From assembly GCA_942491535.1 (NCBI GenBank), contig CALOBV010000007.1:69975-133974 (forward strand): a DNA stretch of 64,000 bases. The letters run 5' to 3'. Made by a program: the position numbers and the translations under genes. The notes beneath the pieces were generated by a model. That model did not search any database. It worked only from the letters and a program-made list of their open reading frames with translations, and had not been told where the DNA came from. Of this stretch, positions 3,191 to 29,653 are shown piece after piece; the stretch's first letter is position 1; the number at the start of each line of letters is the position of its first letter. Origin of the DNA: an uncultured Marinilabiliaceae bacterium (GTDB lineage: Bacteria > Bacteroidota > Bacteroidia > Bacteroidales > VadinHA17).

Positions 3191-3509
3191 GAATGAATAT
3201 TTTAAATTTTCCTTCGTAAGATTCAGATTATTTTGTGCATAATTAATTGCTCTACAAAATAAATTATCCTTTTGCTATAGTCTTGTTAAAGAGTGTTAAA
3301 ATTTAGTTAAATATATTATTGTTCTAAAAATGAATCTGCTGTGATACTTATAAGTAAGTTCTATTCAATTCATGCCTTACTGGTAATATTTGAAAATATG
3401 GTAAAAATGAAGTGTTAAAAATAATAAAAACCAACAGATAGATTAATTTTCATGAACCAGAAATAATTTTGATTATTACTTTTACATATAATAATTAAGA
3501 AAAAGCTTT

Positions 3510-6500: not shown

Positions 6501-6662
6501 GGCGATTATAAGCCAACAGACCAGGTTTACATGGTAAGGGATGAGCTAATTGCAAAAATAGATAAGCAGCTACAGAAATTTGCAGTTGTACTTGATACTG
6601 ATATTAGCGAATTAAATAAAATCTTACACGATAATAATATTCCATATATTGGCATAAAGTAA
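3510..6662 (+). CDS. secreted BNR/Asp-box (sortilin/VPS10-like) repeat protein, glycosyl-hydrolase-like
   Basis: 1050 aa with an N-terminal signal peptide. Asp-box-like S/T-x-D-G-G-x-T-W motifs recur: SLDGGETW, SQNGGESW, STDGGDTW, STDGGRTF, THNGGKEW, TRDGGSNW, STDYGRTW. Confidence 0.8.
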   Translation: MKKRLLCLSLTLLVILTTTISASAQKRNKKNTEPEISQELYSNIEYRLVGPFRGGRSAAVTGIPGNDQVYFMGSTGGGVWKTENTGNTWVNISDGFFGGTIGAVEVAQSDNNIIYVAGGEKTVRGNVSHGYGIWKSLDGGETWNYKGLKEGQYMPRLRVHPKNADLVYVAVLGHLFGQNEERGIYRSQNGGESWEKILYIDDKTGGIDLILDPVNPRIIYASTWQVKRTAYSLESGGPGSALWKSTDGGDTWTNLNKSNGMPDGPLGIIGVSLSADNPKKLYALIEAKEGGLFVSDDRGKNWHKVNSDRNLRQRAWYYTRLYVDPNDAETVYVLNVAFHKSTDGGRTFERINTPHGDHHDLWIDPENSSNIIIGDDGGAQITHNGGKEWSSLLNQPTGQFYRVVTDNHFPYRIYGGQQDNSTVRIESRSLSGSISESNWESTAGGESAWIAPDPIDSDIVYGGSYGGYIIRINHRTGESRRIDIWPDNPMGWGADSLKERFQWNFPILFSKHDKSTLYAASNRLFKTSNEGQSWTAISPDLTRNDISKMGPSGGPITKDNTSVEYYGTIFAVTESDIEEGVIWCGSDDGMIHLTRDGGSNWEDVTPGSDLIPEWAMINSIEADPFNAGGLYVAASSYKYDDFSPYLLHSTDYGRTWNKIVSGIDNSHFTRVIRADHKRKGLLFAGTESGMYISFNDGASWNTFQLNLPIVPITDLEIRDSDLVVATQGRAFWVFDYMDILRVADNKLLAGDFKLLAPAPAYRLGGRSYDRESLTAGKNPPNGTVFNIYLNNKSDLKDIKLEIFDLQGRLIKSFQSNTKGLDIASHLPYESFKPHKGLNQIVWDMNYPGALQVEKMILWSGSLGGPKSVPGTFKAILTVGEQTQETNFEILKSPLSSSSVEDLQKQFDFLITVRDKLTETHQAILDIRKIRERINGIATIVKDTGNEDISDKVSEISKTLDEIENALYQTKNRSNQDPLNFPIKLNNKLAALNGIAATGDYKPTDQVYMVRDELIAKIDKQLQKFAVVLDTDISELNKILHDNNIPYIGIK

Positions 6663-11980: not shown

Positions 11981-12121
11981 AATTTATTAGCTGGTTATCA
12001 TATTCAGACAAAGTTAATATTAGATAATAATTCATTATCATGCTTTCTATCAATTTTGCAAAAAACAGAAATATTTTATGTTAAATGCAATCAATTTACA
12101 GTCTTGTTAGCATATATTTAA

Positions 12122-12153
12122 TTTGTTTTCTAAAGATGTATGTCATAAATTTG
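12122..12153 (+). promoter_or_regulatory. Bacteroidota-type promoter (-33 TTTG, -7 TAAATTTG)
   Basis: TTTG at 12122-12125 and TAAATTTG at 12146-12153 match the TAnnTTTG consensus. The spacer is 20 nt. The motif lies about 24 nt upstream of the structured RNA helix. Confidence 0.4.
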
Positions 12154-12176
12154 CTATGAGGCTTTTAATTAAGCTT

Positions 12177-12350
12177 AGAGGAGTAGATATAATGGTTGAG
12201 TGAGAGGCAGGATTGTATTGCAGACATTGACTTTCACATAAGGCCAGGCAATTAGCCAAAGCGCCTTTCTATTATCAGACAGTAGATTCCGGGTCTAAGA
12301 CATTAGTACCCGTCCCCTGTCGCACCAACCATATCTTCTCCTCTTTTTTT
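12177..12350 (+). ncRNA. structured small RNA candidate, 6S-like architecture
   Basis: The island is GC-richer than its AT-rich flanks. The 5' segment AGAGGAG-T-AGATAT-AAT-GGTTG (12177-) pairs with the 3' segment CAACC-ATATCT-T-CTCCTCT (-12344), closing about 170 nt. Internal hairpins are AAGGC..GCCTT (with nested GGC-AATTA-GCC) and CGGGT..ACCCG. T7 runs immediately follow the closing helix. No ORF is present. Confidence 0.5.
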
Positions 12351-12422
12351 ATGCAATTATTTTCATTAACTCGATTCTCACTTAAATGTGATTATATTTG
12401 TTCTCAATTAGACTAAGGGTGA

Positions 12423-13103
12423 ATGAAGACGTATATCAGGCGCAGGGAAGCAAATTCAGAACTTATCATTGTATTCGGGGGATGGGGAACCGACCAAAAT
12501 GCCTTTCTGCCTCTATTTTGCGAAGATCAGGACCTGATTCTGTATTATAATTATTCTGCAGACGAGCCACTTATATTACCCGATCCAAAAATATATAAGA
12601 GTGTTACAATGATAGGATGGTCGCTTGGTATTTGGGCAGCCGAGCATCTTGCAGGAAAAATGGATCTGAAACCAGACCTGTCAATAGCAGTAAACGGGAC
12701 TCCCTACCCGGCTAATGACCTCTATGGTATTCCGCTTGATATTTTTGAGGGAACGCTTAATAAACTATCCGACAAGGCCTGGGAAAAATTCAATCTCAGA
12801 ATATTCGGAGATAAGAAAACACTGGACATGTATCGTGACCGAACATCCCAAAGATCACTCGAGTCGCTACGTGAGGAGTTGCGATGGATGTACAACAGGA
12901 TTATGGAGACTCATGAACTAAATTATAATTGGACCATTGCGGTTGCTTCGCCTGAGGACAGGATTTTTCCATATAAAAACGTTCATGAATTCTGGTCTAA
13001 AAGAAGTAATACAAAACTGCTTACAATTGATATGCCGCATTATCCATTTTTCAAATGGGATAATTTCAGGCAAATGATAGATGAGTTAAAGAAAAGCTCC
13101 TGA
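12423..13103 (+). CDS. bioG: pimeloyl-ACP methyl ester esterase BioG (DUF452)
   Basis: 226 aa. Blocks LIIVFGGWGT, IGWSLGIWAAE (GxSxG nucleophile), AVNGTPYPANDLYGIPLDIFEGTL and SPEDRIFPYKNVHEFW match, from memory, the order and spacing of the Haemophilus BioG family. Confidence 0.8.
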   Translation: MKTYIRRREANSELIIVFGGWGTDQNAFLPLFCEDQDLILYYNYSADEPLILPDPKIYKSVTMIGWSLGIWAAEHLAGKMDLKPDLSIAVNGTPYPANDLYGIPLDIFEGTLNKLSDKAWEKFNLRIFGDKKTLDMYRDRTSQRSLESLREELRWMYNRIMETHELNYNWTIAVASPEDRIFPYKNVHEFWSKRSNTKLLTIDMPHYPFFKWDNFRQMIDELKKSS

Positions 13104-13110
13104 TCTGGCA

Positions 13111-14460
13111 TCAAATCTCTGCAATTAAAATATTTTCTTCCGATGTTTTTATTTTCTCAGATGCTGTCTTCATTATTTTTTCTATGCTTTTATATTCAGC
13201 ATTCTTAAGAACAGGCAAATCACCGGTACTGATCTGATCCATTTTTGATAAAACGAAATAAAGAGTAAGCCTTGCCGGATCGATACCTGGCTGATATGCT
13301 CTTTCTCTTTTAGAGTCTGTAGTAATCTCAGTTAAGATACCTGCCTCAGACATATTATATACGATCTCTCTTGATATCCTGACAGGTAATTTAAGATGTT
13401 CGGCCAGTTGAGATGATGATAAGGGTGGTTCACCATTTATAAACCTTTTTACAATGATATTCAAAATAACCAACATCAGGATTCGTTGCTGATTAGGGCT
13501 TATTTTAAGTGATTCCGATTCAAACTCGTATTTTCCCACATTCTGATTTGCGAAAGAAACCTCTGCACCAAGAAGTACAATCAACCAGCTTAGCTGCATC
13601 CATATTATAAAAAGAGGGAAGGCTGCAAAACTTCCGTAAATGGCATTGTATTTTGTTACACCTAACTGAAAATCAATATACAGGATCTGAACAACCTGAA
13701 ACATTGTTCCAGCAATCAGGCCGGCAACAAGTGCAGACCTGAACTTCACCTTTGTATTTGGCATTACCAGGTACAGCAATGTAAAAACTACCCACATTAT
13801 GAAAAACTGACTGAACTTAAGCAGGAAAATAATGGCTGGCTTTAAACTATTTAGCACGACAACCTTTTCGGAGACAGATTCGACCATGGTTGTAATCATC
13901 ACTGTCAGACTACCTGATAAAATAAGAAAAACCGGAGCAATAATCATTATGGAAAGATAATCAGCAAATTTTCTCCCCCAGTGCCGTGCTTTTTTGATCT
14001 GCCAAATATGATTAAATGATTTTTCTATATGACTGAGAACCTGCATTACCGACCAAATTAATATTGAAAGCCCTACAATAGCCATTAAACCGGGTTCTAT
14101 ATTCTCAAAAAAGCCTCTGGCCAGGTCAAGTACATAAAGCATTACAGTTTCGTGGCCCTGGAAATTATTGATAATCTCTGTTTCCAGTCTTTTATCAAAT
14201 CCAAATCCCTGGGCAATACCGAAAGCAAGTGCTACTATAGGAACTATTGAAAGTAGAGTATTAAATGTTAATGCAGAGGCACGTAATTGAACTTTATCTT
14301 CAGCAAAGCCCCTGAATGCCAGTACAATGATTCGTATCTCCCTAATCAGAAAAGACTTTCTCTTTGGTAGATCTCCCAGCGGTATATGCCATATATCTTC
14401 TGTTAGATATTTGACCTTTCCTTTAATCCAGCTAATGATTTTATTCATCTTTGAAGGCAT
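13111..14460 (-). CDS. YihY/BrkB-family membrane protein with C-terminal winged-helix-like extension
   Basis: 449 aa. Polytopic membrane core typical of YihY (the old ribonuclease BN annotation). A soluble tail follows: ...SSSQLAEHLKLPVRISREIVYNMSEAGIL. Confidence 0.7.
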   Translation of the reverse strand: MPSKMNKIISWIKGKVKYLTEDIWHIPLGDLPKRKSFLIREIRIIVLAFRGFAEDKVQLRASALTFNTLLSIVPIVALAFGIAQGFGFDKRLETEIINNFQGHETVMLYVLDLARGFFENIEPGLMAIVGLSILIWSVMQVLSHIEKSFNHIWQIKKARHWGRKFADYLSIMIIAPVFLILSGSLTVMITTMVESVSEKVVVLNSLKPAIIFLLKFSQFFIMWVVFTLLYLVMPNTKVKFRSALVAGLIAGTMFQVVQILYIDFQLGVTKYNAIYGSFAAFPLFIIWMQLSWLIVLLGAEVSFANQNVGKYEFESESLKISPNQQRILMLVILNIIVKRFINGEPPLSSSQLAEHLKLPVRISREIVYNMSEAGILTEITTDSKRERAYQPGIDPARLTLYFVLSKMDQISTGDLPVLKNAEYKSIEKIMKTASEKIKTSEENILIAEI

Positions 14461-16661: not shown

Positions 16662-18086
16662 ATGAACAGGTTTTCTTTTGTGATAGCTGCTTTACTTTAC
16701 TGTTTTACAATTGCAAGCGGGCAGACTGATAGCGATAAATTCAACATTTCCATTACAGTTAAAGGGCTCGAAGATAGTTTTATTACGATTGGATATCATC
16801 TTGGAGACAAGCAATACATCAAAGATACTATTACCACCGACAGCAAGGGACATGGGGTCTACAAGGGTGATGTGGCTCTTGAGAAGGGTTTATATATTGC
16901 TTTACTTCCGGATAACAGGTATTTTGATTTTATCGTTGATACAGACCAGCATTTTGAGCTATCATGCTCAAGGGAAGATATTGTTGGCACTATGGTAGTT
17001 AAAGGAAATGGTGAGAACCAGGATTTCATAGAGTACCAGAGAAAATGGATGGATCTTCAGAACAAATCAAGGGAGCTAAGAGAGAAAATGCAGACTGAGT
17101 CTAAGTCCGGCAATCAAAATGACTCACTTAGAAAGTCAATCACTGATCATGAAGCCAGGATGCTTAATTTCCTTAAATCAACAGCCAATAATAAACCCGG
17201 ATCCTTCCTTTCCATACTTGTTAAAGCTCTTATTCCAGTAGAAGTTCCTGACTTCGATATACCAGAAACAGGAGCTAACATAGATTCTTTGAGGTGGATC
17301 GCTGGATATAATTACAATAGGGATCATTTTTTTGATAATATTGATCTAAGTGACTCAAGGCTAATCAGAACACCCATCCTGCACAGCAGGCTTAGCACCT
17401 ATTTTTCTAAAGTGCTAATACAGCATCCCGACTCTCTTAACAGGATTATACCAACTATTGTTAACAAGAGTGAAGGAGACTCGGTGATGTTCAGGTACCT
17501 GGTAGTGTTTATATTCAATCATTTCAGGGAAAGTCCGATAATGGGACATGATGGAGTTACAGTAAAAATAATCGACGACTATTACCTGTCAGGTAAGGCA
17601 AACTGGATTACAGAAGAAACATATAACAGCCTTAGCGAGGATGCTAATCGCCTGCGACCAAATCTGATTGGAAAAAAAGCAGTCGATCTGGTGATGGAAA
17701 CCTATAGCGGGCAGCATCAGTCAATTTATGACATAACAAAGGATTATACAATACTTTACTTCTGGGAGCCTAACTGTGGACATTGCAAAACCACAACTCC
17801 GAAATTGAAAGAGTTATATAAGAAGTTCAGAACGAGTGATGTAGAGGTGTTCGCTGTATGTACTCAGGATAAGCGTGATGAATGGGAGGCTTACATTGCA
17901 GAGAATGAGCTGGAATGGATAAATGGTTGGGATCCTGCAAGATCGACTCATTTCGATTTTTTCTATAATGTAAATGCCACTCCCTTAATCTATATACTTG
18001 ATAAGGAAAAAACTATTATAGCCAAAAAGATAGGTGTAGAGAATATCGAGAATTTCCTTAACGACTACCGTAAGCATAATCACTAA
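16662..18086 (+). CDS. secreted thioredoxin-fold (TlpA/AhpC-like) protein with large N-terminal domain
   Basis: 474 aa with a signal peptide. The C-terminal thioredoxin fold carries WEPNCGHCK (CxxC). Confidence 0.8.
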   Translation: MNRFSFVIAALLYCFTIASGQTDSDKFNISITVKGLEDSFITIGYHLGDKQYIKDTITTDSKGHGVYKGDVALEKGLYIALLPDNRYFDFIVDTDQHFELSCSREDIVGTMVVKGNGENQDFIEYQRKWMDLQNKSRELREKMQTESKSGNQNDSLRKSITDHEARMLNFLKSTANNKPGSFLSILVKALIPVEVPDFDIPETGANIDSLRWIAGYNYNRDHFFDNIDLSDSRLIRTPILHSRLSTYFSKVLIQHPDSLNRIIPTIVNKSEGDSVMFRYLVVFIFNHFRESPIMGHDGVTVKIIDDYYLSGKANWITEETYNSLSEDANRLRPNLIGKKAVDLVMETYSGQHQSIYDITKDYTILYFWEPNCGHCKTTTPKLKELYKKFRTSDVEVFAVCTQDKRDEWEAYIAENELEWINGWDPARSTHFDFFYNVNATPLIYILDKEKTIIAKKIGVENIENFLNDYRKHNH

Positions 18087-19098
18087 ACAGATCTCCTTTA
18101 AGGAAATTAGATAAATTATAGATATCAGTGAATCGGGCGATTTCCCTGCCATCGACAATGATTTTCCATTCAGCCTTACTGTAATCTCCCCGTACTTTGA
18201 TTATTGGCAGATCGCTTTCTGATCCCAATTCAATTTTTAACCTCAGAATAGCTCTCATTGTAAGCTTTTCAAGTTTTTGGTTTGCGTCAATCGCAATTTT
18301 GCCAATTATTTTTGAAGGATATATATATAAGCCCGACTCGTCTGCAAACTCCAGCTTGCTATCCTCAAATAAATTCACAAATCGGCCTTCCCTCATCAGG
18401 TCTTCGGGAGATCCTTCATAAAGCTTGTTTTTACCAAGCAACCATATTTTGTCGGATTCTCCTATAGCGATATGAAGATCATGGGTTGTATAGATTACCG
18501 TTTTCCCCTCCCTTTCAACAATTTCCCGCAGTAGAGCGATCAATTCATATTTATTTGGAAGATCGAGGTAGGCAGTAGGCTCATCCAATACAATGAACTG
18601 AGTATCCTGGGCCAGTGCCCGGGCAATCATTGCCCTCTGTCGTTCTCCGTCAGACATCTCACTTAACTTCCTGTTTCTGTACTGTTCAAGATCAACATTG
18701 GATATTGATGTGTCGATTATTCTTCTATCAAGATCCTTGATCCTGCCAATCCAGTTGGTATGAGGAAATCTTCCCAGGGCAACCAGCTCATACACGGTAA
18801 GATTGTTTGATACAGAGCTTGAAGCAGATACGTAACTATAGTAAACTGCCAATTCGGTTTGAGAATAATCAGCTATGTCTTTGCCTTTAAGTATGATTCT
18901 TCCTTTTAATTGTTCCTGAAGACCGATAAGCGATCTTAAGAGGGTAGATTTGCCAACTCCATTTGCACCAATAACTGCAATCATCTCACCACCCGAAGCC
19001 GAAGCACATATACCACCCATTATCTCTGAATGCCTGCCCTGTGACCTGTAGCCAACTGACAGATCTTCGAGTTCTAATATTTTTCCAACCAGGGCCAT
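18058..19098 (-). CDS. btuD: ABC transporter ATPase (BtuD/FepC type) with about 90-aa C-terminal extension
   Basis: 346 aa. Walker A GANGVGKST, signature LSDGERQR, Walker B VLDEPTAYLD. Last gene of the riboswitch-led operon, with a 1-nt overlap on the permease gene. Confidence 0.8.
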   Translation of the reverse strand: MALVGKILELEDLSVGYRSQGRHSEIMGGICASASGGEMIAVIGANGVGKSTLLRSLIGLQEQLKGRIILKGKDIADYSQTELAVYYSYVSASSSVSNNLTVYELVALGRFPHTNWIGRIKDLDRRIIDTSISNVDLEQYRNRKLSEMSDGERQRAMIARALAQDTQFIVLDEPTAYLDLPNKYELIALLREIVEREGKTVIYTTHDLHIAIGESDKIWLLGKNKLYEGSPEDLMREGRFVNLFEDSKLEFADESGLYIYPSKIIGKIAIDANQKLEKLTMRAILRLKIELGSESDLPIIKVRGDYSKAEWKIIVDGREIARFTDIYNLSNFLKGDLFSDYAYGSR

Positions 19099-20162
19099 CA
19101 GGTAACAGATATCATTTTATTTCTTCTGATTACTATCCATATCATAACCGGAATTCCAATAAGTGCAGTAACCGAATTTATTGGCAGAACCCTCTCACTT
19201 CCCGGCAACTGACTGACTATGTCTGATATAAGCAATAATATTGAACCAAGCAGAACAGTGCCTGGAATAAGATAATTATGTGATGATTTTCCTATTAATA
19301 ATCGCGTAATATGTGGAACAGCGATCCCAAGAAATGAAATTGGTCCGCAAAATGCTGTTACGCTTCCTGCCAGGATACTGGTTCCTGCGAAAATTAAAAA
19401 TCTGGTTGATATTATATTTAATCCCATTGTTTTGGCGTAATCTTCGCCCAGCATCAATGCATCCAGCCTCTTTATTGAGAAAATTGAAATTAACAGACCA
19501 GCGATTACACATATTATCAGAACATTTATCTGGCTCCAGGAAAGATTTCCCAGGCTACCCATAGTCCATATTACAAAGGCTTTTAGCATGGATTCATTAC
19601 TGAAGTACTGAAGGATGGATACAAATGCTGATATAGCACTGCCAATCATTATCCCTAGTATTAAAACAGTCATAATATCCCTCACACGAGACGATACAAG
19701 CATTATCAATAACATTACCAAACCTGCACCGGTCCATGATGCAATTGCAAGTATCCAGTTTCCTCCCAGTGAGATTCCTGAAAATGTTAACACTGACGAC
19801 ATTCCCAGTATTAAAATAGCTACTCCCAGGCTTGCTCCTGAACTTATTCCAAGAACATAGGGGCCTGCAAGCGGGTTTCTGAAAACTGTCTGCATCTGCA
19901 AACCACTAACTGATAAAGCAATACCTGCAAATATTGCCGTAATCGCCCTTGGTAGCCTGAAAGTAATTAATATTGTACGGTCGATTTCACTTCCACCTCC
20001 CATAAGCATATTAAGCAGCTCTTTAAAAGAATACACCTCAGAACCAACAGTAATATCTATAATAAATAAGAGAAGCAATAGTACTACCAGGACAGGAAAA
20101 ACCAGGGCCGGATTTGTACGGTATTTTTTTGAGAACCTTATATTACCTGGATTTACCTGCAT
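19098..20162 (-). CDS. btuC: FecCD-family ABC permease (BtuC type)
   Basis: 354 aa. Polytopic membrane protein with FecCD-type glycine-rich helices. Operonic. Confidence 0.8.
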   Translation of the reverse strand: MQVNPGNIRFSKKYRTNPALVFPVLVVLLLLLFIIDITVGSEVYSFKELLNMLMGGGSEIDRTILITFRLPRAITAIFAGIALSVSGLQMQTVFRNPLAGPYVLGISSGASLGVAILILGMSSVLTFSGISLGGNWILAIASWTGAGLVMLLIMLVSSRVRDIMTVLILGIMIGSAISAFVSILQYFSNESMLKAFVIWTMGSLGNLSWSQINVLIICVIAGLLISIFSIKRLDALMLGEDYAKTMGLNIISTRFLIFAGTSILAGSVTAFCGPISFLGIAVPHITRLLIGKSSHNYLIPGTVLLGSILLLISDIVSQLPGSERVLPINSVTALIGIPVMIWIVIRRNKMISVT

Positions 20163-20164
20163 TT

Positions 20165-21301
20165 TTATTCAACTTTCAGATAATAATACAATTCGTGATT
20201 CTGAATAATATCCGGATGGAGTATTGAAGCAATATCCATAAGAATCAAATCTGGTCTTATAGCCCCTGATTCCCAGTAATCATTACCTCCACTTCGGGAT
20301 AACCTGGCTACATTATTATAAAGATTGCCTGACTGTACGGAAGGTAGCCCGGCGAATCTTCTGTCAAAGGCAAGGAGCTCCTTCTTCGTAGTTAGATTAC
20401 CAATATTTAGCCAATATTCGCTTCGCAAAGCTTCCCTGAACACAGACTCAATGCTTAATGGCATCGACTTATCAGATTTATGATCGGCCCATATATATTC
20501 ACCCCCTGCATCTTCTATCATTGTACTTATATAGGAATTACCCGGGGAAATAAACCACTTATCTTTATATGGCAATCCGAGCATTACTCCTGGTGTGTTA
20601 GTTATTGTCGTTTCAATTGAATCCCTTATGCTTTCATAATTGAGCCTGACTTTTGAAAACAACATATTAACCTCTTCTTCTGCGCCAAATAAAAGGCCAA
20701 ATAACTTTATCCACTCTGTTTTAGCAAGTGGATGCACCTCCAGGTAATCACCTATATAAAGTGCTGGGATATTTACTGTTTCAAGTTTTGAAATATAACC
20801 GGCAGATTCAGGACCAATACCATAAACAAAGACAATATCAGGATCAAGAGTTGTAATTAGTTCTGTATTCAGATTGCTGTCGTACCCAACATCTTTTACA
20901 TAACCTTTTTCTATGCGTTCTCTTACCCTGGTGTTAGATACATAGTTTGTCCCTGAAACACCTATTATACTTTCAAGCGATCCGACAGCATCTATCATGG
21001 CAATGTGGGTGGTAGACAGGCATATGCATTTTTCAACAGGCAGCTTTATCTTTCGGCTTTCCTTGATATCCGGAGGTATACTGTTTATATTTTCAGACAG
21101 ATAATAAGAAATTACAATATCATCTGCACCCTGCCAGGGAGAGAATATATCGAGTCGAACATAATTTCCGGAATCGCTTAATGAAAATAGTTTAGCATAT
21201 TCATTACTACTTGCTATACCGGGCTTATTATCAACTCTACGATCTGACCCGCAGGAGCTCAGTGCAACCAATAGTATATAGACGACAAAATAGAATTTCA
21301 T
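20165..21301 (-). CDS. btuF: periplasmic-binding lipoprotein (BtuF-like, class 8 PBP)
   Basis: 378 aa. Lipoprotein signal LVALSSC. Its position upstream of the FecCD permease and ATPase fits this role. A 4-nt ATGA overlap links it to the upstream protease gene. Confidence 0.65.
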   Translation of the reverse strand: MKFYFVVYILLVALSSCGSDRRVDNKPGIASSNEYAKLFSLSDSGNYVRLDIFSPWQGADDIVISYYLSENINSIPPDIKESRKIKLPVEKCICLSTTHIAMIDAVGSLESIIGVSGTNYVSNTRVRERIEKGYVKDVGYDSNLNTELITTLDPDIVFVYGIGPESAGYISKLETVNIPALYIGDYLEVHPLAKTEWIKLFGLLFGAEEEVNMLFSKVRLNYESIRDSIETTITNTPGVMLGLPYKDKWFISPGNSYISTMIEDAGGEYIWADHKSDKSMPLSIESVFREALRSEYWLNIGNLTTKKELLAFDRRFAGLPSVQSGNLYNNVARLSRSGGNDYWESGAIRPDLILMDIASILHPDIIQNHELYYYLKVE

Positions 21302-23478
21302 CGTACTCCTCCCTTAATAATCTTATATACCTGGGACTGTCCTGAAACAACGACTTCAATAAAGTATATACCTGCTTTAAGATTTTGCAGATTGTCTATG
21401 CTAAAATGATGATTATTGATGTTGCTATATTTTCTAAGGGTTTTCCCGGAAATATCTAAAATCGCTACAGACTGAATCATTTTCTCGTCAGAGAGAGACT
21501 CAATATTCAAAACATTACTAATCGGATTCGGATAAATATTAATTTTATAAGGCTCCAAATATTCATTTTGAACCGATACAACAGTACTATTTTCTACAAC
21601 AACGGTTTTTATATACAGGGTATTCTCTCCGGGATCAAAGGGATGCTGGCTAAAGGGATGCCATCCATTTTGATCCATATACCAGGCAAAATCAGAACCT
21701 GGAAGTGATGCAGAACCGTGATAAACAGCAAATTGCCTGATTTCTGAGTCGGCACTTTCCCTGTACCAGTTACGGTAGGCAACATAGAATGTTCCATTAA
21801 CTAAAACAGGATTGGAAAAATCGACACGCAATAAGTAATCGTCAGTGGTTTCCTTTATAAAAACTTTTTCAGAAGCAATTACATTTCCCGGACCGCTGTT
21901 ATCGTCGAGAATATATATAGAAACCGAATCATAGTTAGTAACATAATTGGTGGAACCCAGATAAAGGAAGACATCTGTTATTTCCTTTGGAGAGTCTGTA
22001 TAGAATTTCTCTGCATAGGAAATAAGGCTATCTATATTAAATCCTGTACTTAAACCGGTAGTTCCTTCAGAATATTCAGTAAGAAAATATTCACCACTTA
22101 CTCCGTTAAACAAAGTGTCTGAAGATTGATAGTTAATTTCATATGGATCTCTGCCACTCAGTATTTCTGTTCCGATATTATTATTATCAAGCCATGGTTT
22201 AAGGCTGTACTGGCTATTTACTGATATATCAAAAGAAATATCAAGTCTTGCATAGTAATCATTTACACTATTTCCACATCTTGCTTCTCCCCCGGTTAAA
22301 GTGCCTATTATTTTATGATTATTATTAAATAGAGGTGATCCTGAAGAACCTCCCTCCGTTGTTCCAAGATCCCATTGAAGGATCTGCCAGAATCCATCTT
22401 CATACTTATCTTCGAATCTAGCTATTATTGGCTCATCAAAATCTACAGAGATCTTCTTTACATCTCCCGACGGATGATGAATACATGTCTGATAAGGAGT
22501 AATATTACCGCTTACGTCCCATCCTGCCATATAGGGTTTATATAATATAGGAGGAAATTCCGACAGCTCGAGTAAAGTAACATCTATAATATCGTTAGTT
22601 GAAACAAGATAGGCCCCTGAAATAGATTTTGATACTCTGCCATCAGGACCGTCACACCACGGACTTTCATAATTAAATATCGCAATTGTCTGATTGGCCT
22701 CCAAAGAATTCCCAACTACATGCTGGGCAGTTAGTATATAGGGAATATTATCATTCGCGGTATTATTTACAAGGGTACCCGTTCCCAGGTAGGTATTGTC
22801 TATCAGGAGTTTTACCACGGCTCTTTTTTCATCACCCCAGGCCATGCCTTCATCGCAATTTATATCAATATTGCATATCCCTGACGAACCATAGTCTACA
22901 TCTTTGTCGCTTAGTTTTCCAAATATACCAAGGGCATCGTGACTAAGCTGTCCTATCTCAAGATCCCCTCCTCCTTCCTTCCTGAAACTGTATTCTATTA
23001 TTAGCTGACTACCTTCAAGGGGTATAACAGGAAGTATGCCGGATTCCTTATTATTTTTGTATGTAAAAGGTCCGAGAACGTTCAACTGACCGGGATCATA
23101 AATAAATATTTTCTCTCCTTCAACAAGCTTAAATTTTGAAAAAATAACTCCAAGTGCTGCAGCATCACCTGACGAGATAAAGATATGCCATGTATTGAAC
23201 TCACCCTTTTGTTCGGTAATGATTCCTGAATTAGCCGTATTTAAATTAAGCTCTACGGGTATCGCAAAACGAAGTAAACCCTTATCCTCCCCGGCTTCAC
23301 TCCTGATCTGATCTATCTCACTCGGCTGGACAGACAGATAGACCCATTCAATGCTTTTATCAGCAAAATCAAATCCCATCGGAGATCCAGTCTCGTGAAC
23401 TATCTGGGATCTTGTACTTATTGCACAAGCAATAAGGATCAGAGATAAGTATAATTTTCGCATCATTCTATAATTCAT
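21298..23478 (-). CDS. T9SS-secreted trypsin-fold (S1, lysyl-endopeptidase-like) serine peptidase
   Basis: 726 aa with a signal peptide. Triad contexts LTAQHVV (His), DVTLLEL (Asp) and TEGGSSGSPLF (Ser). The C-terminal Por/T9SS sorting domain reads IYPNPISNVLNIE...GIYFIEVV...YKIIK. Confidence 0.75.
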   Translation of the reverse strand: MNYRMMRKLYLSLILIACAISTRSQIVHETGSPMGFDFADKSIEWVYLSVQPSEIDQIRSEAGEDKGLLRFAIPVELNLNTANSGIITEQKGEFNTWHIFISSGDAAALGVIFSKFKLVEGEKIFIYDPGQLNVLGPFTYKNNKESGILPVIPLEGSQLIIEYSFRKEGGGDLEIGQLSHDALGIFGKLSDKDVDYGSSGICNIDINCDEGMAWGDEKRAVVKLLIDNTYLGTGTLVNNTANDNIPYILTAQHVVGNSLEANQTIAIFNYESPWCDGPDGRVSKSISGAYLVSTNDIIDVTLLELSEFPPILYKPYMAGWDVSGNITPYQTCIHHPSGDVKKISVDFDEPIIARFEDKYEDGFWQILQWDLGTTEGGSSGSPLFNNNHKIIGTLTGGEARCGNSVNDYYARLDISFDISVNSQYSLKPWLDNNNIGTEILSGRDPYEINYQSSDTLFNGVSGEYFLTEYSEGTTGLSTGFNIDSLISYAEKFYTDSPKEITDVFLYLGSTNYVTNYDSVSIYILDDNSGPGNVIASEKVFIKETTDDYLLRVDFSNPVLVNGTFYVAYRNWYRESADSEIRQFAVYHGSASLPGSDFAWYMDQNGWHPFSQHPFDPGENTLYIKTVVVENSTVVSVQNEYLEPYKINIYPNPISNVLNIESLSDEKMIQSVAILDISGKTLRKYSNINNHHFSIDNLQNLKAGIYFIEVVVSGQSQVYKIIKGGVR

Positions 23479-23577
23479 TTTACCGGGAATAATAGCTGCA
23501 GATACCTGCCAGTAGCTTTGTAAGACAGATCATAACTGTAAATATAGGCTTTCTGTATTAATCGAATGCATCGCATA

Positions 23578-25515
23578 TTATGATAGTTTTTTTGAGCCGA
23601 ACTTAATTGAAAGGGAAAGCATATAAGATCTCCAGGGCATAGGATAATTAATTACACTCTGATAATCTGTACCAAAAATGTTATTGACTTTAAATCGTGC
23701 TCCCAGGATGGTTGACTTAATATTAAATAACTCTTCAATAGATGCACTATTTAGCCAGTATGAAGGAAGATTTTCAGAATTGTCATCAGTAATATATCGT
23801 TTCCCTGTGTATGATGTCATCCATGTAAACATGAGCTTATTATACCTGTAAATCAGTGAAAATGAAGCCATATTTGAAGGCACATAAATTAACTGTTTTC
23901 CTACTGTATTATCATCTACTGTCAGCCCCTTATCTCGGCTAACATCTGTAAAATAATAACTTCCTATAAATTTTATGCCTTGATTACCTGAAGAATAACT
24001 AATCTGTTGATCTATCTCCACTCCATTCGAAATTACACTTGCTATATTCTCTGGTTTCCAGACATATTCTGAAACCGGGACCCATAATATCATATTATCA
24101 ATCAATGACCTATAAGCCGTGATGCTGCCATCAATAGTTAAAGTTTTCAGCAACCTGTCTTTGTAGGAAACGGTAATTTCAAAATTGCTTGCCTTTTCAG
24201 TCTTCAGGTCGGCGTTACCTCCCGGTAACCAATATAAATCATTTAAGGTAGGCAGATGATTTGACAGGCCTATACTTCCTTTCAGGTGATAATCGCCTTT
24301 GTTAAAAAATCTGATATCGAATCCGGTTGAGGGTGATAATCGAAGGAATTCTCCATTCATCAATTCCTGATTTAAAGATGAAAACAGCCCGAGTCTATCA
24401 TTAACCAGTAATGAATAGCTTAGCTCCACTTCCAGCTGATTACGCTGAATAAGATCTTCATAGTTATTTGTATTAACTCCCGTCGTCCTATAATCAAATC
24501 CAAGCTTAAGCTTTGAATTTTCCGTAAATTTATATATACCAGCCAGCCTGGCATTTACAGCATTTACCTGGTTCCGGGAGGCAATAAAAAACGATTCATT
24601 CGTATAGTGCATCCAATCTGAAATATATCCCACCTGACCCTCTAAATCTGCTTTCGTCTTATATGTATGGAATGAGATCACGGCGCGTATTGATTCATCA
24701 GTTTGCCTTTCATTTCCCGGTGTCGTTGGATATGCTGTTGACCCAGGCAAATCCCTGTCAGAAAAATTATACCAGAACCTTCCTCCAAAAACAGTGCTCT
24801 TATTCTTCAGGTTAATTTCATGAAGCATACCTCTTGTCTTATACGCTGCTCCTTCCCTTTTTAGTATTTCCTCTGTATTGCTCAAGGGGTCAAAATACTC
24901 ATGATTATTTTCAGCATTTTGAAGATATGCCCTGAGTCTGTAATTTATATTCTTCTTTCCCACACTCAAATCGATTGTTTCAAGTAAATTCGAAAAGCTC
25001 CCTATATTCTGCCGATATTCTATATTGATATTATCTTTCCATTCCGGTATGCTTTGAATAGCCACGGTGCCTCCCGGCCCCCTGTTTCCAAAACCCATAG
25101 GTGTCCCTCCATTATATATTGTAATATCTCCGGTAAGATAAGTCATTATTGTAGACAGGTCGCTTTGACCGGTCATGGGATTATCAATCCTCATTCCTTC
25201 CCATACTATCTGTGTGTGATTGGCTCCCATCCCCCTGAAAGAAGATGTAGCAGTTCCACCCAGTCCATACGACTTTATATACAATGGTGTATTAATATTA
25301 AGAGCATCTGCAATTGAATTGCTAAAAGCAGACCTTAATAAGTCGTTATCTATGTATAAAACCTTATATCCCTTCGCCCCGTCCGGAATGGATGGGACTA
25401 TAAGCACTTCACCAAGACTGACCGTATCGCCTTCAAAAAGAATGTTTTCCTGGGCAATAGCAGCATTAAACAAAAAGCCATGCATAAGGATTAATATGAA
25501 TATTGATTTTTTCAT
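23578..25515 (-). CDS. btuB: TonB-dependent outer-membrane receptor, cobalamin-riboswitch controlled
   Basis: 645 aa. Signal peptide, plug-domain region (ADALNINTPLYIKSYGLGGTATSSFRGMGANHTQIVWEGM) and a beta-barrel. First gene after the riboswitch. Confidence 0.85.
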   Translation of the reverse strand: MKKSIFILILMHGFLFNAAIAQENILFEGDTVSLGEVLIVPSIPDGAKGYKVLYIDNDLLRSAFSNSIADALNINTPLYIKSYGLGGTATSSFRGMGANHTQIVWEGMRIDNPMTGQSDLSTIMTYLTGDITIYNGGTPMGFGNRGPGGTVAIQSIPEWKDNINIEYRQNIGSFSNLLETIDLSVGKKNINYRLRAYLQNAENNHEYFDPLSNTEEILKREGAAYKTRGMLHEINLKNKSTVFGGRFWYNFSDRDLPGSTAYPTTPGNERQTDESIRAVISFHTYKTKADLEGQVGYISDWMHYTNESFFIASRNQVNAVNARLAGIYKFTENSKLKLGFDYRTTGVNTNNYEDLIQRNQLEVELSYSLLVNDRLGLFSSLNQELMNGEFLRLSPSTGFDIRFFNKGDYHLKGSIGLSNHLPTLNDLYWLPGGNADLKTEKASNFEITVSYKDRLLKTLTIDGSITAYRSLIDNMILWVPVSEYVWKPENIASVISNGVEIDQQISYSSGNQGIKFIGSYYFTDVSRDKGLTVDDNTVGKQLIYVPSNMASFSLIYRYNKLMFTWMTSYTGKRYITDDNSENLPSYWLNSASIEELFNIKSTILGARFKVNNIFGTDYQSVINYPMPWRSYMLSLSIKFGSKKLS

Positions 25516-25689
25516 ATCTACCTTTATTTATGGGCCTTGCAATCAAATAAAGAAATTTTGGAATTTACTTTATTCCAGGAATAAAGCATAGCAAATGACA
25601 CAGCAGTCATCAAATTGATAATCTTCTTCATTTTGATTTGTTTTTGTTTAACACTACTTTATCGCAAGCAGGAAACAAAGTGAGGTTAT

Positions 25690-25885
25690 AAACCAACGCC
25701 TTTATCCCGAAAGCTTAGGATTTCTCCTGTCACAGGCAGGTCTTCTGACTTATCCCAATCCACAGCGCCTTCCCATCGAATTAATTTTGACAGTGGCTAA
25801 AGTGCTCTGGATCATTGTTGCAATTTGCAACCGGGCTTCACAGCAGCGGGTACTGTTACGGATTCAGACCGTATTCCCTCTTATC
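25690..25885 (-). promoter_or_regulatory. cobalamin (B12) riboswitch
   Basis: The minus strand reads GAGGGAATACGGTCTGAATCCGTAACAGTACCCGCTGCTGTGAAGCCCGG...GCCACTGTCAAAATTAATTCGATGGGAAGGCGCTG...AAGTCAGAAGACCTGCC. These are the conserved core blocks plus the B12 box (plus-strand 25735-25750). It sits upstream of the TonB receptor. Confidence 0.9.
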
Positions 25886-25959
25886 GATATATTGAAAAAT
25901 AAATCGATACCTGATCAATACAAATGTAAGAGATAAAGTTAGTAATATCAATATTGAAG

Positions 25960-28614
25960 TCAATTTTTCTGAGCATTGATTAATGCCAGAATTTGATCGA
26001 TCAGACCAATCTGATATCCTTCGGACTTAAAAATAATTTCATTTTCAGGGTTTACGAATATCAGCACAGGCAAAGAAACATCTCTGGGGTCAATCTCCGG
26101 AAATAGATCATTTAAAAGTCTGCTATTTGTATCAAAACCTAGGAGGCAATTTTTTGGCAGATTACTTTGAACATCCAGGTTGAAAGATTGCGTAAGCAAT
26201 GTTGAATCTGTTATTAATACTAATCTTTCCACCCCAATCATCCAGCTGATCTGAGTTATTCACAAGCTCACTCAGGAAGTGTTTGGTGGGTTCTTTTTCA
26301 TGGTTTATCCAGGCAATAACAGAGCCATTACCATGTGCATTGTAAAGTGAAATATATTTATCGCCACTATAAATTTTATCAGCAGGACTAATATACTGAA
26401 GAACGGGTCTTTCCAGCTTATTATCTCTGAGTGAAAATTCTATTTCCCTGCATTCGTTTTCACCTAGTTCAAAAAATAATATTTCTGATAAAACTTCATT
26501 TTCATTTACCCTGTTGCCACTTACCAGCATATACTCACCGGCGTCTAATTTGACAGGCCAGTCGAAGTCATTAATATTCTTGCCATAATCGTAACCAAGA
26601 GTTTTATATTTTCCATCAGCCCTGTATGCAAGTGTGAAATGGGTATAGTAATCTGCTCTTCCAGGATTATCTGCTATTCTCAATGTAAGTTCAGCACAGG
26701 CCTTATTTTCACTTTCTTCATCAGCAAACTTAATTTCTTCCAGTTTCCGTTCTGCATAATACTGAGGTATATCTCTTTCTTCTTCTATACGAGCCGGTAT
26801 TCCGTAGCTCCTGCAGAGGGCTACAAATAAAATACCTCTTGAATGGTAGTCGGTATATGCAAGTTCAATGCTTCCCCGGGGGGATATAGGTACATTATAA
26901 TAATTTCTTTCCTCGTCTATACTCACATTATCATCAATCCACTCTACTAATCCGGATGGGTTTTCTCTGAATGATATTATTGCATCGTAATCATTCAAAT
27001 CCTGTAAATATCCCCTCCATGGTTTAATAATCTCGTTTGCTATCCGGGGATTCAATACATATTTATTAAAGATATCATCAGGCTATGTTGCCAGAATAGA
27101 ATTTCCGTGCATTTACAAGGTGATCTATCAGTATATCTTCAGGAGTATCTCTTAAATCCTTATCAGTCAATACATTCAATATGGAAATAGCATCATCCCT
27201 TAAATCAGTATCTATTTGCTCGAGAAATCTGATAACAGACCGATAGTTCCCCATGCTTCTTTTGATAGGCGAACTGATTTCGCTCCACCTGTATCCTGAT
27301 CTGGCAGCAAACTCAATTATTCCTGTTGAATCTATCCATGTGGCTATGTAATTTTCACGAATACTATCCTCTCTTTTCAGTCTAGAGCTATTATCATTTA
27401 TTTGAACATCACTCAGTACAGGATTATTCCTTGTTGGATCAGGAGCACTCAGGTTAAATTTATAAAGATCACCATCATCTATTCCCGCTCCTAAAATTAT
27501 CTCCAGGGTGTCTGTTTCTGCGACAGACACAAGGTCAAAGCCAGAGTTTCCGTTCTTTGAGCACCATACTAAAAGATTGCCCAGTCCGGTTACAAAGGAT
27601 GTATAACCGCTAGAATCAGTTATAGTTTCTGCTATTGGATAAAACTCTGCATAATTATATAGGCCATATTGAACTTCAGCATCCTCCACTGGATTATTAT
27701 CATTGTCAAGAACCCTGACTATTAATGTCCTGGTGTCTGCATACATGGCCAGGTTATTAATCTCAGCATAGTATTCATTTCTTCTGACCAGGATCTTCCT
27801 TCCCATAATACTTTCCAAAAGACTTTGTATGAATAAGCATAGCCCTTGAGGCTGCTTCAGTAAACCACCCATGGTTTAGGATTGGTTCGGGCTCACAGGC
27901 CCCCATATATTTCCATTCTCCGTTTATCCAGACTTCAACCCAGGCATGATTATCATCACTATGGGCCCACCTGGGTACATATACCTGTCTGGCAGGTATA
28001 CCTGCTGTTCGGAGTGCTGCAACAGTAAGTGTAGATTCCTCACCACAGCGTCCACGGGTTGATAATATTGTTGCCATTGGTGCAGATGTTCTAATATCGG
28101 CACCCTGGTAGCTTACTTTTTCGTGGCACCAGTGATTAATCTCGAGTGCTGCTGCTTCAATATCATCAAAACCCCTGAGCCGATCTGCAAGTTCATCATA
28201 GTACTTAATTCGAAAAGAATCGAGGTTCTCATTATTCACACGAACAGGAAGCACATAATGAAGGTAAATGTGGTCTGGGATACCAGGTACCCAGGGGAAA
28301 TAACTCCTGGCTTTAATAGATTCCCTTATATTTTCAAGGAAGAAACGAGAATCATAATCTGCCAGGTCATTTAAGGGCATTGATGCCAAATAAAATTTCA
28401 ATCCTTCTTCTTCTGCCCTGCTCAGTCTGCTATCAGAAAAAACCTGAAACAATTGATCTGAGCGGTTATCTGCAAATTTTCTTACCAGCTCAAATCTTGA
28501 ATTTATATCCTCCCTCAAATATTTGTCTTTGATCAACTTATTACTATTGCACGATGTAAGAGTGAAAAGGATAACAACAAGGTGTACCAGTATTGAGCTA
28601 ATCTTATTATTCAT
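25960..28614 (-). pseudogene. transglutaminase-like lipoprotein (about 885 aa) broken by three frameshifts
   Basis: Four consecutive ORF fragments read as one protein. The N-terminus is the lipoprotein signal MNNKISSILVHLVVILFTLTSC. The transglutaminase core is GRCGEES...HAWVEVW. Junctions are ...YYGKED|LVRRNEYY (~27790), ...FYSGNI|PDDIFNKYVLNPRI (~27076) and ...DDWGGK|LVLITDST (~26225). Each needs a 1-nt shift. Confidence 0.75.
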
Positions 28615-28621
28615 AGTTATA

Positions 28622-29653
28622 CTACAATCTACCACACGACCTTCCAATAACCAGGTCGGGGGCGATTTTTACGGTTCTTTTATATTTACTTTTTCCGCTG
28701 TTTTTAATTTCAGACCAGAGCATTGACACAACTTTTGACGACATACCCGGGATATTTCTTTCCAGATAAGTTATTGGCGTCGTTAAGATGTTAAATGCGG
28801 TGCCGCTTTCAAGAGATACCAGGGCTATATCTGCAGGAACCCTTATTTTTAATCTCTCAAGGCTTTCTAAGATCGGATATACCAATAATGCTTCACAAAC
28901 TACAAGTACGTCGGTACTAATAGGTTTTCTGATAAAGGGAATTAACTGTTCGTCTTTTATACTGTTTAAAATATCAACATCAAGCTTGCAATCGTCAATA
29001 ACAGGTTCATTCAGATATTCCTTAAGGCTGGATTTAACACTATTCACTTTTTCATCAAGGTATATTGAGTTTGCCGATGACCTTATTATTGTATATTTCT
29101 TATAGCCAAATTCGTTCAGGTGCTTAATAAGTTTTTTTGTCCCTGCCTCACAATCGCTAACAACCTCATTTAACCTGAGGTTAACTCCAGCCCTTTCGAG
29201 AAGGAGAAAGGGGAAACCGGATGCTTTCAGAGATCTTATTATTTCTTCGTCTGCCGAATCACCAGTAAGTATAACAGCACTATACATTCGTTTTATATTG
29301 GTAACAAATTTCCCATATCTGGCATCTTCCATATTGAGAGTAAGTATTGAAAATCCAAATCCTATACTGGCAAACGCTCTCCTGAGGTGTTCCGAAATTT
29401 CGATCACAAAAGGATCCTTAAGAGATGATACTATCATTCCAACTATACCCGGGCTCAAAACAAGCGACTCAGGTTTATGTAAAACGTCACCAGATTCAAA
29501 ATAACCCATCGAATGTGCCATAGCAATTACTTTCTCCTGGGTTTGCGCTTTAATACCATGCTGGTTTGCCTTATTATTTAAAACCAACGACACCAGAGTA
29601 CTTGAAAGACCGAGCCTTGCGGCAATATCCTTTATCCTAACCTTCTTAGACAT
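28622..29653 (-). CDS. LacI-family transcriptional regulator
   Basis: 343 aa. N-terminal HTH IKDIAARLGLSSTLVSLVLNNK plus a periplasmic-binding-fold effector domain. Confidence 0.9.
   Translation of the reverse strand: MSKKVRIKDIAARLGLSSTLVSLVLNNKANQHGIKAQTQEKVIAMAHSMGYFESGDVLHKPESLVLSPGIVGMIVSSLKDPFVIEISEHLRRAFASIGFGFSILTLNMEDARYGKFVTNIKRMYSAVILTGDSADEEIIRSLKASGFPFLLLERAGVNLRLNEVVSDCEAGTKKLIKHLNEFGYKKYTIIRSSANSIYLDEKVNSVKSSLKEYLNEPVIDDCKLDVDILNSIKDEQLIPFIRKPISTDVLVVCEALLVYPILESLERLKIRVPADIALVSLESGTAFNILTTPITYLERNIPGMSSKVVSMLWSEIKNSGKSKYKRTVKIAPDLVIGRSCGRL

Follow-up and report, generated by a model that had tools for sequence, protein, structure and literature searches.

Most microbes require vitamin B12 and related corrinoids but few can make them, and the scavenging of these compounds thus shapes microbial communities. 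To our knowledge, the accessory components of bacterial B12 uptake described so far are binders or transporters. In a 64,000-nt stretch of DNA from an uncultured Marinilabiliaceae bacterium (contig CALOBV010000007.1; this whole stretch is called the window, and positions are counted from its first letter), a gene for a predicted secreted protease stands between the genes of a B12 receptor and those of a B12 importer. What is a protease doing there? Its placement in the operon suggests that some bacteria may free B12 from proteins by proteolysis ahead of import. In the literature, we found no paper on a protease in bacterial B12 loci and none joining lysyl endopeptidase with a cobalamin riboswitch, and neither a 2026 review of the Bacteroides B12 systems nor the DUF4465 family paper mentions a peptidase. 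“Type IX secretion” and “cobalamin riboswitch” were found together in a single paper, which by its title and abstract is a general flavobacterial transcriptome study.

A protease gene within a cobalamin-uptake operon

All genes of the operon lie on the minus strand in the order riboswitch, btuB, protease gene, btuF, btuC and btuD, as a sequence-only reading of this DNA had described. The features are as follows.

25921..25928, minus strand: possible -7 box (TAcaTTTG) of a Bacteroidota promoter, located at the riboswitch's 5′ edge, read off the sequence
25929..25718 (25718..25929), minus strand: cobalamin riboswitch aptamer (Rfam RF00174, 86.5 bits, gathering score 31.5, E 6e-20, full model, 1-189 of 189)
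25515..23578, minus strand: BtuB-type TonB-dependent corrinoid receptor, 645 aa (Plug and TonB_dep_Rec barrel domains)
23536..23577, minus strand: conserved block in the spacer between btuB and the peptidase gene, which includes CTATATTTACA (alignment with relatives)
23478..21298, minus strand: predicted lysyl-endopeptidase precursor with a type IX secretion system (T9SS) tail, 726 aa (Pfam Trypsin_2 and Por_Secre_tail; phmmer against PDB)
21301..20165, minus strand: BtuF-like periplasmic binding lipoprotein, 378 aa (Peripla_BP_2, E 5e-21)
20162..19098, minus strand: BtuC-like permease, 354 aa (FecCD, E 2e-78)
19098..18058, minus strand: BtuD-like ATPase, 346 aa (ABC_tran, E 5e-28 over residues 35-176)

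The junctions also agree with that reading: the protease gene overlaps btuF by 4 nt, a 2-nt gap separates btuF from btuC, and btuC overlaps btuD by 1 nt. Between the receptor and peptidase genes there is a spacer of 99 nt, which the earlier reading had left out.

The receptor matched the Bacteroides BtuB structures 8p98_A, 8p97_A and 8bmx_C over its full length (E 1e-65 to 5e-63), and its top NCBIfam family was TonB-B12, with a score under an equivalog cut-off that was built on proteobacterial BtuB. The BtuF-like protein has the lipobox LSSC followed by non-acidic residues. The top NCBIfam family of the permease was BtuC (199 bits, under the cut-off of 334), and the ATPase, which carries a C-terminal extension of about 90 aa, matched both corrinoid and iron-dicitrate ATPase families with scores under their cut-offs. 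All these NCBIfam matches fall under equivalog cut-offs; it is the riboswitch that points to a corrinoid as the substrate of BtuFCD. A tblastn search of the whole 64-kb window found no homologue of BtuG (DUF5074) or DUF4465. A 35-codon ORF between the riboswitch and btuB was considered as a split N-terminus of btuB and rejected, as the two are in different frames and btuB already encodes a signal peptide. Elsewhere in the window, the ORF at 3495-6662 matches the T9SS C-terminal domain (CTD) profile weakly (E 3.5e-4).

The box at 25921..25928 fits TAnnTTTG, the Bacteroidota promoter consensus, and is possibly a promoter element. The sequence-only reading had held the protease to be co-regulated by cobalamin. 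That a riboswitch heads the cluster is borne out, and from this arrangement we infer that the protease may be under cobalamin control; counting against it are the conserved spacer block and the relatives without a riboswitch described below. The block at 23536..23577 is kept in relatives whose proteases are 94%, 71% and 70% identical to that of the window while the remaining spacer diverges, and it is possibly an internal promoter or a processing site. A consensus scan found no terminator-like site in this spacer. Sites matching the sigma-70 and terminator consensus were no commoner than in shuffled sequence, the sigma-70 consensus used here not being of the Bacteroidota type; promoters in Bacteroidota are not sigma-70-type.

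A predicted lysyl-endopeptidase precursor with a type IX sorting tail

Along the 726 residues of the protease, the following parts were assigned.

23407..23478, minus strand: putative signal peptide, residues 1-24 (hydrophobic N-terminus read from the translation, then the near-invariant Q25)
22903..23406, minus strand: N-terminal pro-domain, residues 25-192, modelled as a beta-sandwich that runs up to the conserved K192-D193 (AlphaFold2 model and alignment)
22144..22902, minus strand: catalytic domain, residues 193-445, with H253, D299, S379 and the S1-pocket D407 (Foldseek and phmmer)
21571..22143, minus strand: beta-sandwich (jelly-roll-like) middle domain, residues 446-636 (model pLDDT mostly 85-97)
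21301..21546, minus strand: type A T9SS C-terminal sorting domain, residues 645-726 (PF18962, TIGR04183)

The earlier assignment to the S1 peptidases stands and can be sharpened. Trypsin_2 spans residues 232-392 (E 7e-9), and in a phmmer search of the PDB residues 197-444 aligned to chain residues 1-262 of Lys-C (4nsv_A, E 4.6e-31) and Achromobacter protease I (1arb_A, E 1.6e-28). The intact His/Asp/Ser context noticed earlier corresponds to the triad His57-Asp113-Ser194, to which H253, D299 and S379 align, and D407 takes the place of Asp225 of Lys-C. The three triad residues are invariant in 22 homologues, and together with D407, C202, C208, C275 and C401 they are invariant in 134, which indicates that catalysis is under selection. 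When the protein was first modelled with AlphaFold2 on the 22-sequence alignment, the catalytic domain was poor (pLDDT 64.6), so that a fold search on this model was uninformative; remodelling with 134 sequences gave a pLDDT of 91 and a pTM of 0.82. In Foldseek, the catalytic domain of the new model superposed on 4nsv, 4nsy and 1arb with TM scores of 0.88-0.89 and an rmsd of 2.0-2.1 Å over 260 columns. By alignment and model, the protein is thus a predicted lysyl-endopeptidase precursor of the Achromobacter protease I/Lys-C type, with a complete catalytic apparatus and the aspartate of the lysine pocket, and it probably cuts after lysine.

Homology to these S1 family enzymes, of which Lys-C is from Lysobacter enzymogenes, runs through the entire mature domain (E 5e-31, TM 0.88, with 33% identity in the structural alignment) and includes the triad, the equivalent of the S1-pocket Asp225 and two of the three disulfides. 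The disulfide beside the catalytic His is missing from the window protease, and His210 is replaced by Thr. Achromobacter protease I and Lys-C are made as precursors that begin with a long pro-region at the N-terminus and are extended at the C-terminus, as is predicted for the window protease, whereas the latter differs in its T9SS sorting tail and in having another kind of beta-sandwich extension. The known enzymes are general secreted proteases, while the window gene lies inside a B12-uptake operon.

The signal peptide was predicted by eye. In Bacteroidota, Gln comes after the signal-peptidase I cleavage site, and the conservation of Q25 fits this rule, being invariant in the 22-sequence alignment and kept in at least 90% of the 134-sequence alignment. 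The pair K192/D193 is conserved to the same degree (invariant in 22 sequences, at least 90% in 134). In the model, the pro-domain strands at 72-181 have a pLDDT of 82-97 and the loop at 192-196 is below 50, and the alignment to the mature Lys-C chain begins at residue 197. We infer that the protease cleaves itself after K192.

At the other end, the Por-type sorting tail reported earlier was recovered above the cut-offs of both profiles: PF18962 spans residues 648-721 with 45.1 bits (cut-off 27, E 1.2e-11) and TIGR04183 scores 44.3 bits (cut-off 23). A T9SS CTD profile matched all 79 of the 79 homologous ORFs in related loci. Given this tail, which is of type A, and the predicted Sec signal peptide, the protease should end up at the cell surface or in the medium. 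A published parallel is PepK of P. gingivalis (PGN_1416/PG0553), which is T9SS-secreted, anchored to the surface by A-LPS, and acts as a serine endopeptidase with Lys specificity; it is grouped among virulence proteins, its activation needs Rgp gingipain, and no B12 link is drawn (PMC4674972). PepK and the window protease would be alike as T9SS-exported, Lys-type serine endopeptidases, a likeness taken from the published description rather than from sequence.

For the middle domain, the Foldseek matches were sandwich domains from GH2 enzymes and from Cwp84 that are sugar-binding or lectin-like. A known B12-binding module in the non-catalytic domains was rejected: these Foldseek matches are generic sandwiches, and hhalign of the middle (446-640) and N-terminal (25-190) domains against DUF4465, BtuG and a 324-aa T9SS protein of two related loci (L003 and L005) gave probabilities below 1%. 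The dN/dS ratio against a relative with a 94% identical protease was 0.21 for the protease gene and 0.17 for btuB; by this measure, the protease gene is under purifying selection.

Conservation of the protease-btuFCD linkage

The sequence-only reading had named absence of the gene from the B12 loci of relatives as a ground for refutation, but the gene clearly recurs there. Among 80 related loci, 36 have the protease gene followed directly by btuF-btuC-btuD, and an upstream riboswitch is present in 30 (six of them confirmed with Rfam). The operon of the window is found again in close relatives, whose proteases are 70-94% identical, and a cultured organism, Prolixibacter bellariivorans ATCC BAA-1284 (L031), has the protease-btuFCD unit. 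Many Bacteroidales and some Marinilabiliales keep the protease in this placement. As this adjacency recurs in dozens of distant relatives, it is not by chance.

The loci of Bacteroides thetaiotaomicron (riboswitch, BtuB, BtuG, BtuH/DUF4465, BtuJ and BtuFCD) are likewise headed by a riboswitch and encode a homologous BtuB (E 1e-65), and homologues of their BtuG, DUF4465 and BtuFCD proteins occur in many of the related protease loci. As had been stated earlier, the accessory proteins described in the published Bacteroides systems consulted are non-enzymatic binders, whereas in window-type loci the protease is a conserved member; the window operon differs further in having neither a BtuG nor a DUF4465 gene, as do at least seven other loci. 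That the protease stands for a different strategy from BtuG/BtuH did not hold, however. A BtuG gene shares the operon at 23 related loci (match to 8p97_B, E 6e-61), and DUF4465 (BtuH-type) proteins, some with T9SS tails, are encoded in others. The protease therefore comes on top of the binders and does not replace them.

Against a functional link, it could be argued that the protease serves general nutrition or housekeeping, was inherited as a block with the importer genes and has no role in B12 uptake. There is a precedent in btuE, which lies within btuCED of E. coli and has no transport role (PMC6143338); it is a caution about genes inside B12 operons, not a relative of the window protease. 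Gene order in these genomes is generally well conserved, with a convergent thioredoxin-like gene as neighbour in 34 loci, so that part of the recurrence reflects common descent. In L034 and in L001, which is the closest relative in the genome collection, the protease is kept at a site where riboswitch, btuB and btuFCD are absent, and about one third of the sampled family members, many paralogues among them, lie in unrelated contexts. Several observations speak against this explanation, which we regard as unlikely. The tight stop/start junction with btuF is kept in 26 loci whose proteases share no more than 35-48% identity with that of the window; the junction is the 4-nt overlap in the window and 15 other loci, and measures -1 to +5 nt in a further 10. 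The partner genes change from locus to locus (BtuB alone, BtuB with BtuG, DUF4465, or a convergent DUF4465) while the protease remains inside the operon. In Carboxylicivirga and Marinilabiliaceae loci, the protease is independently paired with DUF4465 genes in a different orientation. A 34-row clade (SH-aLRT 98) is made up of B12-linked proteases, which are found in other branches of the tree as well.

Proteolytic release of corrinoids as a proposed role

We propose that the protease frees corrinoids from proteins outside the cell, ahead of capture and import, a reading to which we assign a probability of about 0.5. Under B12 scarcity, the protease would be made together with the corrinoid importer, and its precursor would be activated by its own cut after K192. 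It would then cut extracellular corrinoid-carrying proteins after lysines, the candidate substrates being the corrinoid enzymes of dead cells and the high-affinity binders of other organisms. The freed corrinoid would pass to BtuB, with BtuG or DUF4465 binders where present, and on to BtuF and BtuCD, so that a proteolytic release step would precede the known relay of capture and import.

The Lys-specific, T9SS-exported gingipain Kgp frees haem for HmuY in P. gingivalis. In mammals, host (pancreatic) proteases release B12 from haptocorrin (Wexler 2018, PMC6143338). Both cases are functional analogies only, in which a carrier is degraded so that a binder or receptor takes the cofactor; Kgp is a cysteine protease unrelated in sequence to the window protease, and the window-type organisms are environmental, not host-associated.

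Some observations count against a role in release. Operon membership is no proof of function, and the importer in the inner membrane, not the surface receptor, has the tightest link to the protease, an odd arrangement for an extracellular enzyme. To these are added the two protease-only loci, the possible internal promoter, the family members in unrelated contexts, and six loci (L004, L007, L031, L043, L054 and L085) that have protease-btuFCD with no riboswitch within 10 kb.

Alternatively, the protease may act on the cell's own B12-capture proteins, maturing, shedding or turning over BtuG, DUF4465 or other T9SS-anchored binders, to yield diffusible scavengers or B12 freed for BtuB. The 23 operons with BtuG encode lipoproteins bearing acidic, surface-export-like residues, and the DUF4465 proteins of other operons, some of them T9SS-tailed, would also be at hand; a release step from such a binder is conceivable because BtuG2 binds B12 with femtomolar affinity (PMC6143338). 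We consider this improbable: the window operon and the others like it encode neither binder, with none in the 64 kb of the window, published work reports that BtuB-BtuG complexes are stable, and proteolysis is absent from the 2026 review of the Bacteroides system.

It is very improbable that the beta-sandwich domains bind corrinoid or dock on BtuB, with the protein mainly a capture and hand-off stand-in for BtuG and its proteolysis secondary: although both domains are confidently modelled, the gene directly follows btuB here, the position of BtuG in other loci, and Y488, Y572, A598 and F609 of the middle domain are enriched in B12-linked members, neither domain resembles DUF4465 or BtuG in hhalign, no B12 binder is among the best 50 Foldseek matches, unlinked paralogues have the same domains, the catalytic residues are invariant, and BtuG is itself present in most of the operons. 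The four residues belong to six that stand out in B12-linked proteases, with K192 and D193, and are a weak lead, since phylogeny confounds the comparison.

Release could also be read in a far bolder form, which we hold to be a long shot. Here the protease would be a required, B12-starvation-induced corrinoid pirate that destroys the femtomolar BtuG- and BtuH-type binders and corrinoid enzymes of others at the cell surface, its own beta-sandwich, where BtuG is lacking, holding the enzyme at BtuB or handing the corrinoid over. If so, proteolysis would be the first and indispensable step by which many environmental Bacteroidota scavenge B12, and that scavenging would hinge on type IX secretion.

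In the simpler form of corrinoid release that we prefer, the idea is directly testable, the catalytic domain belonging to a much-studied family of enzymes for which standard assays exist. With a conserved extracellular protease encoded in the operon, B12 uptake would gain a step of enzymatic release. Such a step, if true, would open the pool of protein-bound corrinoids, in the enzymes of dead cells and the binders of competitors, to uptake, and would link the way in which environmental Bacteroidales obtain B12 to type IX secretion.

The B12 uptake operon and its regulation

A T9SS-secreted S1 peptidase inside a riboswitch-controlled btuB-btuFCD operon had been proposed in a sequence-only reading, and this gene order was borne out by an Rfam riboswitch and by the Pfam assignments of the five open reading frames (ORFs) that follow it, in order:

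25929..25718, minus strand, full-length cobalamin riboswitch (Rfam, 86.5 bits, E 6e-20)
minus strand, 645-aa ORF, TonB-dependent receptor with Plug and barrel (btuB)
21298..23478, minus strand, 726-aa ORF, protease with Trypsin_2 and Por_Secre_tail
minus strand, 378-aa ORF, Peripla_BP_2 (btuF)
minus strand, 354-aa ORF, FecCD (btuC)
minus strand, 346-aa ORF, ABC_tran (btuD)

The 645-aa receptor matches solved Bacteroides BtuB structures end to end (8p98_A, E 1e-65), and the junctions 3' of the peptidase gene are exactly those described earlier, namely a 4-nt overlap, a 2-nt gap and a 1-nt overlap. The receptor and peptidase genes lie 99 nt apart, a spacer absent from the earlier description. 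Within this spacer, a 42-nt block including CTATATTTACA (23536-23577, minus strand) is conserved among relatives with proteases 70-94% identical, while the remainder diverges. An internal promoter is one possible function of the block, RNA processing another; because of the first possibility, B12 control of the protease is something that we infer.

The operon belongs to the Bacteroidota Btu loci and lacks BtuG. The published accounts consulted on B12 uptake in Bacteroides describe only binders; a 2026 review of this uptake and a paper on the DUF4465 family mention no peptidase, and a full-text literature search found no description of a protease in bacterial B12 loci.

Other features were seen in and around the operon. 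Between btuB and the riboswitch aptamer there is a 35-codon ORF (MKKIINLMTAVSF..., 25525-25631, minus strand) in a frame other than that of btuB; it may encode a leader peptide or have arisen by chance. Beyond its ABC core, the BtuD-like ATPase continues for about 90 further C-terminal residues (18058-18330, minus strand), an extension seemingly general in the family (cluster median 341 aa), and the last 29 nt of its gene overlap a convergent thioredoxin-like gene. Just upstream of the riboswitch, a transglutaminase-like gene (25960-28647, minus strand) is split into four ORFs of 93, 297, 264 and 290 aa, reflecting either a decaying gene or assembly frameshifts; it is unsplit (about 880 aa) in the related loci L086, L081 and L084, whose proteases are 94%, 71% and 70% identical to that of the window.

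A predicted lysyl endopeptidase

A phmmer search against the PDB aligned residues 197-444 of the protease with the entire mature chains of Lysobacter Lys-C (4nsv, E 4.6e-31) and Achromobacter protease I (1arb, E 1.6e-28). An initial AlphaFold2 model built from 22 sequences rendered the catalytic domain poorly; one built from 134 sequences reached pLDDT 91 and pTM 0.82, and Foldseek superposed it on Lys-C and protease I with TM 0.88-0.89 and rmsd 2.0 A. The His/Asp/Ser context, previously read as intact, proved to be so: H253, D299 and S379 align on the triad His57, Asp113 and Ser194, and D407 aligns on Asp225, the lysine-specificity residue of these enzymes. None of the four residues varies among the 134 sequences, and neither do C202, C208, C275 and C401, the counterparts in the alignment of two of the three protease I disulfides. 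The domain layout is as follows.

Domains of the 726-aa protease
Residues 1-24: signal peptide, followed by a conserved Q25
Residues 25-192: pro-domain, beta-sandwich
Residues 193-445: catalytic domain
Residues 446-636: second beta-sandwich
Residues 645-726: type A T9SS tail

The model has two low-confidence loops, 192-196 and 637-640, which are the expected processing sites, and the conserved K192-D193 is consistent with self-activation by a cut after lysine. Against a 94%-identical relative, dN/dS is 0.21 for the protease, close to the values of 0.17 for btuB and 0.12 for btuF. The protein agrees with the lysyl endopeptidase family in each sequence and structural feature tested, and we regard it as a new member of this known enzyme family with a predicted activity. 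The closest characterised T9SS example, by its published description, is PepK of P. gingivalis, a surface-anchored T9SS protein with Lys-specific serine endopeptidase activity (PMC4674972). Elsewhere in the window, an ORF of about 1050 aa (3495-6662, plus strand) weakly matches a T9SS CTD profile built from the protease family (E 3.5e-4) and may encode a second T9SS cargo protein.

Recurrence of the protease beside B12 genes

Relatives were scanned at one genome per species, and the best 80 loci, with proteases 29-49% identical to that of the window, were retained. In a tblastn search with the window's five proteins, the peptidase was followed directly by btuF, btuC and btuD homologues in 36 of the 80. 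A profile built from seven riboswitches found a same-strand upstream cobalamin riboswitch in 30 loci (E 1e-23 to 1e-57), six of which were confirmed with Rfam. A 4-nt overlap between peptidase stop and btuF start is present in 16 loci, the window among them, and a further 10 have a junction of -1 to +5 nt. Relatives with 70-94% identical proteases share the window's exact operon, riboswitch included. In a maximum-likelihood tree of 79 proteases, the genes adjoining B12-uptake genes fill a 34-row clade (SH-aLRT 98) that includes the window, and others of this kind are spread over at least four further branches. The comparative signal linking protease and B12 operon is strong. Clustering of all neighbouring ORFs gave the following gene orders.

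Gene orders at loci carrying the protease (L-numbers, related loci; for L081-L084 and L086 the order was taken from gene calls and the riboswitch found separately)
riboswitch-BtuB-BtuG-protease-BtuFCD: commonest order
riboswitch-BtuB-protease-BtuFCD: window, L002, L009, L010, L012, L015, L051, L081-L084, L086
riboswitch-DUF4465-protease-BtuFCD: L006, L033, L079
riboswitch-DUF4465-(T9SS protein)-BtuB-BtuG-protease-BtuFCD: L003

The 350-aa partner is a DUF5074 protein matching the BtuB-pairing chains of PDB 8p97 and 8bmx (E 6e-61) and is therefore BtuG, and DUF4465 is the B12-binding domain of BtuH (PMC8941943, PMC13398666). In Carboxylicivirga and a Marinilabiliaceae MAG (L065, L072, L077), a PKD-DUF4465 (BtuH-type) lipoprotein gene (~12120-13270, minus strand) is convergent to the protease and btuFCD is absent, a second, independent adjacency to B12-binding genes. 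In L035, a gene under riboswitch control that encodes a T9SS-tailed DUF4465 protein lies upstream of the protease at a distance of about 3.5 kb; an opposite-strand sensor kinase gene stands in between. The link is weakened by L004, L007, L031 (Prolixibacter bellariivorans ATCC BAA-1284), L043, L054 and L085, where protease-btuFCD is present and no riboswitch was found within 10 kb; the constant partner is thus the inner-membrane importer, not the receptor or riboswitch.

Some loci carry further genes. A T9SS-tailed protein of about 325 aa with no other Pfam domain (L003, 5904-6878; L005, 82-1065) lies between the DUF4465 gene and btuB in riboswitch-controlled operons and is a candidate for a further secreted component of B12 loci. 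In L045 (12241-15552), L073 (11999 onward) and L057 (4125 onward), the gene directly 3' of the protease encodes a protein of about 1100 aa with TPR repeats, and in L045 this gene separates the protease from btuFCD. In L085 (7931-14387 of a 4.27-Mb metagenomic contig), protease-btuFCD begins only 42 nt after a LacI-family regulator gene, with no receptor or riboswitch found nearby, which hints at another mode of regulation in some lineages.

Proposed corrinoid release and its alternatives

We propose as the likeliest reading, with a probability of about one half, that the protease releases corrinoids. Exported by the T9SS and self-activated, it would cleave corrinoid-carrying proteins outside the cell; the freed cofactor would be captured by BtuB, together with any BtuG or DUF4465 binders, and would enter the cell via BtuF-BtuCD. 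MAG titles suggest as habitats sediments, soils, aquifers, hydrothermal vents and salt flats, where the substrates are likely to be corrinoid enzymes of dead cells and binders of other microbes rather than host carriers.

It is unlikely that the gene is a passenger encoding a protease of general function. Gene order in the locus set is well conserved in general: 34 loci have a convergent thioredoxin-like gene next to the cluster, and LacI, transglutaminase-like and GH92 genes are frequent upstream, so shared ancestry explains part of the recurrence. Both L034 and L001, the closest relative of the window within the genome collection, have an intact protease at the equivalent site, and no riboswitch, btuB or btuFCD was found there; about one third of the sampled family members lie amid unrelated housekeeping genes. 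Operon membership has a precedent of this kind in E. coli btuE, which has no role in transport (PMC6143338). We consider it distinctly less probable that the protease processes or sheds the cell's own B12 binders, given that the window operon and several others hold no such binder gene. Least probable is that the beta-sandwich domains serve in capture or docking, an idea that gained no support from hhalign or Foldseek.

For corrinoid release, sequence and model provide the evidence on export, active site and operon membership; timing, substrates and benefit we infer. The functional role is a prediction, and the release hypothesis is directly testable. Judged by its genes, the system is a B12 uptake operon with a putative secreted protease built in, a new form of a known operon.
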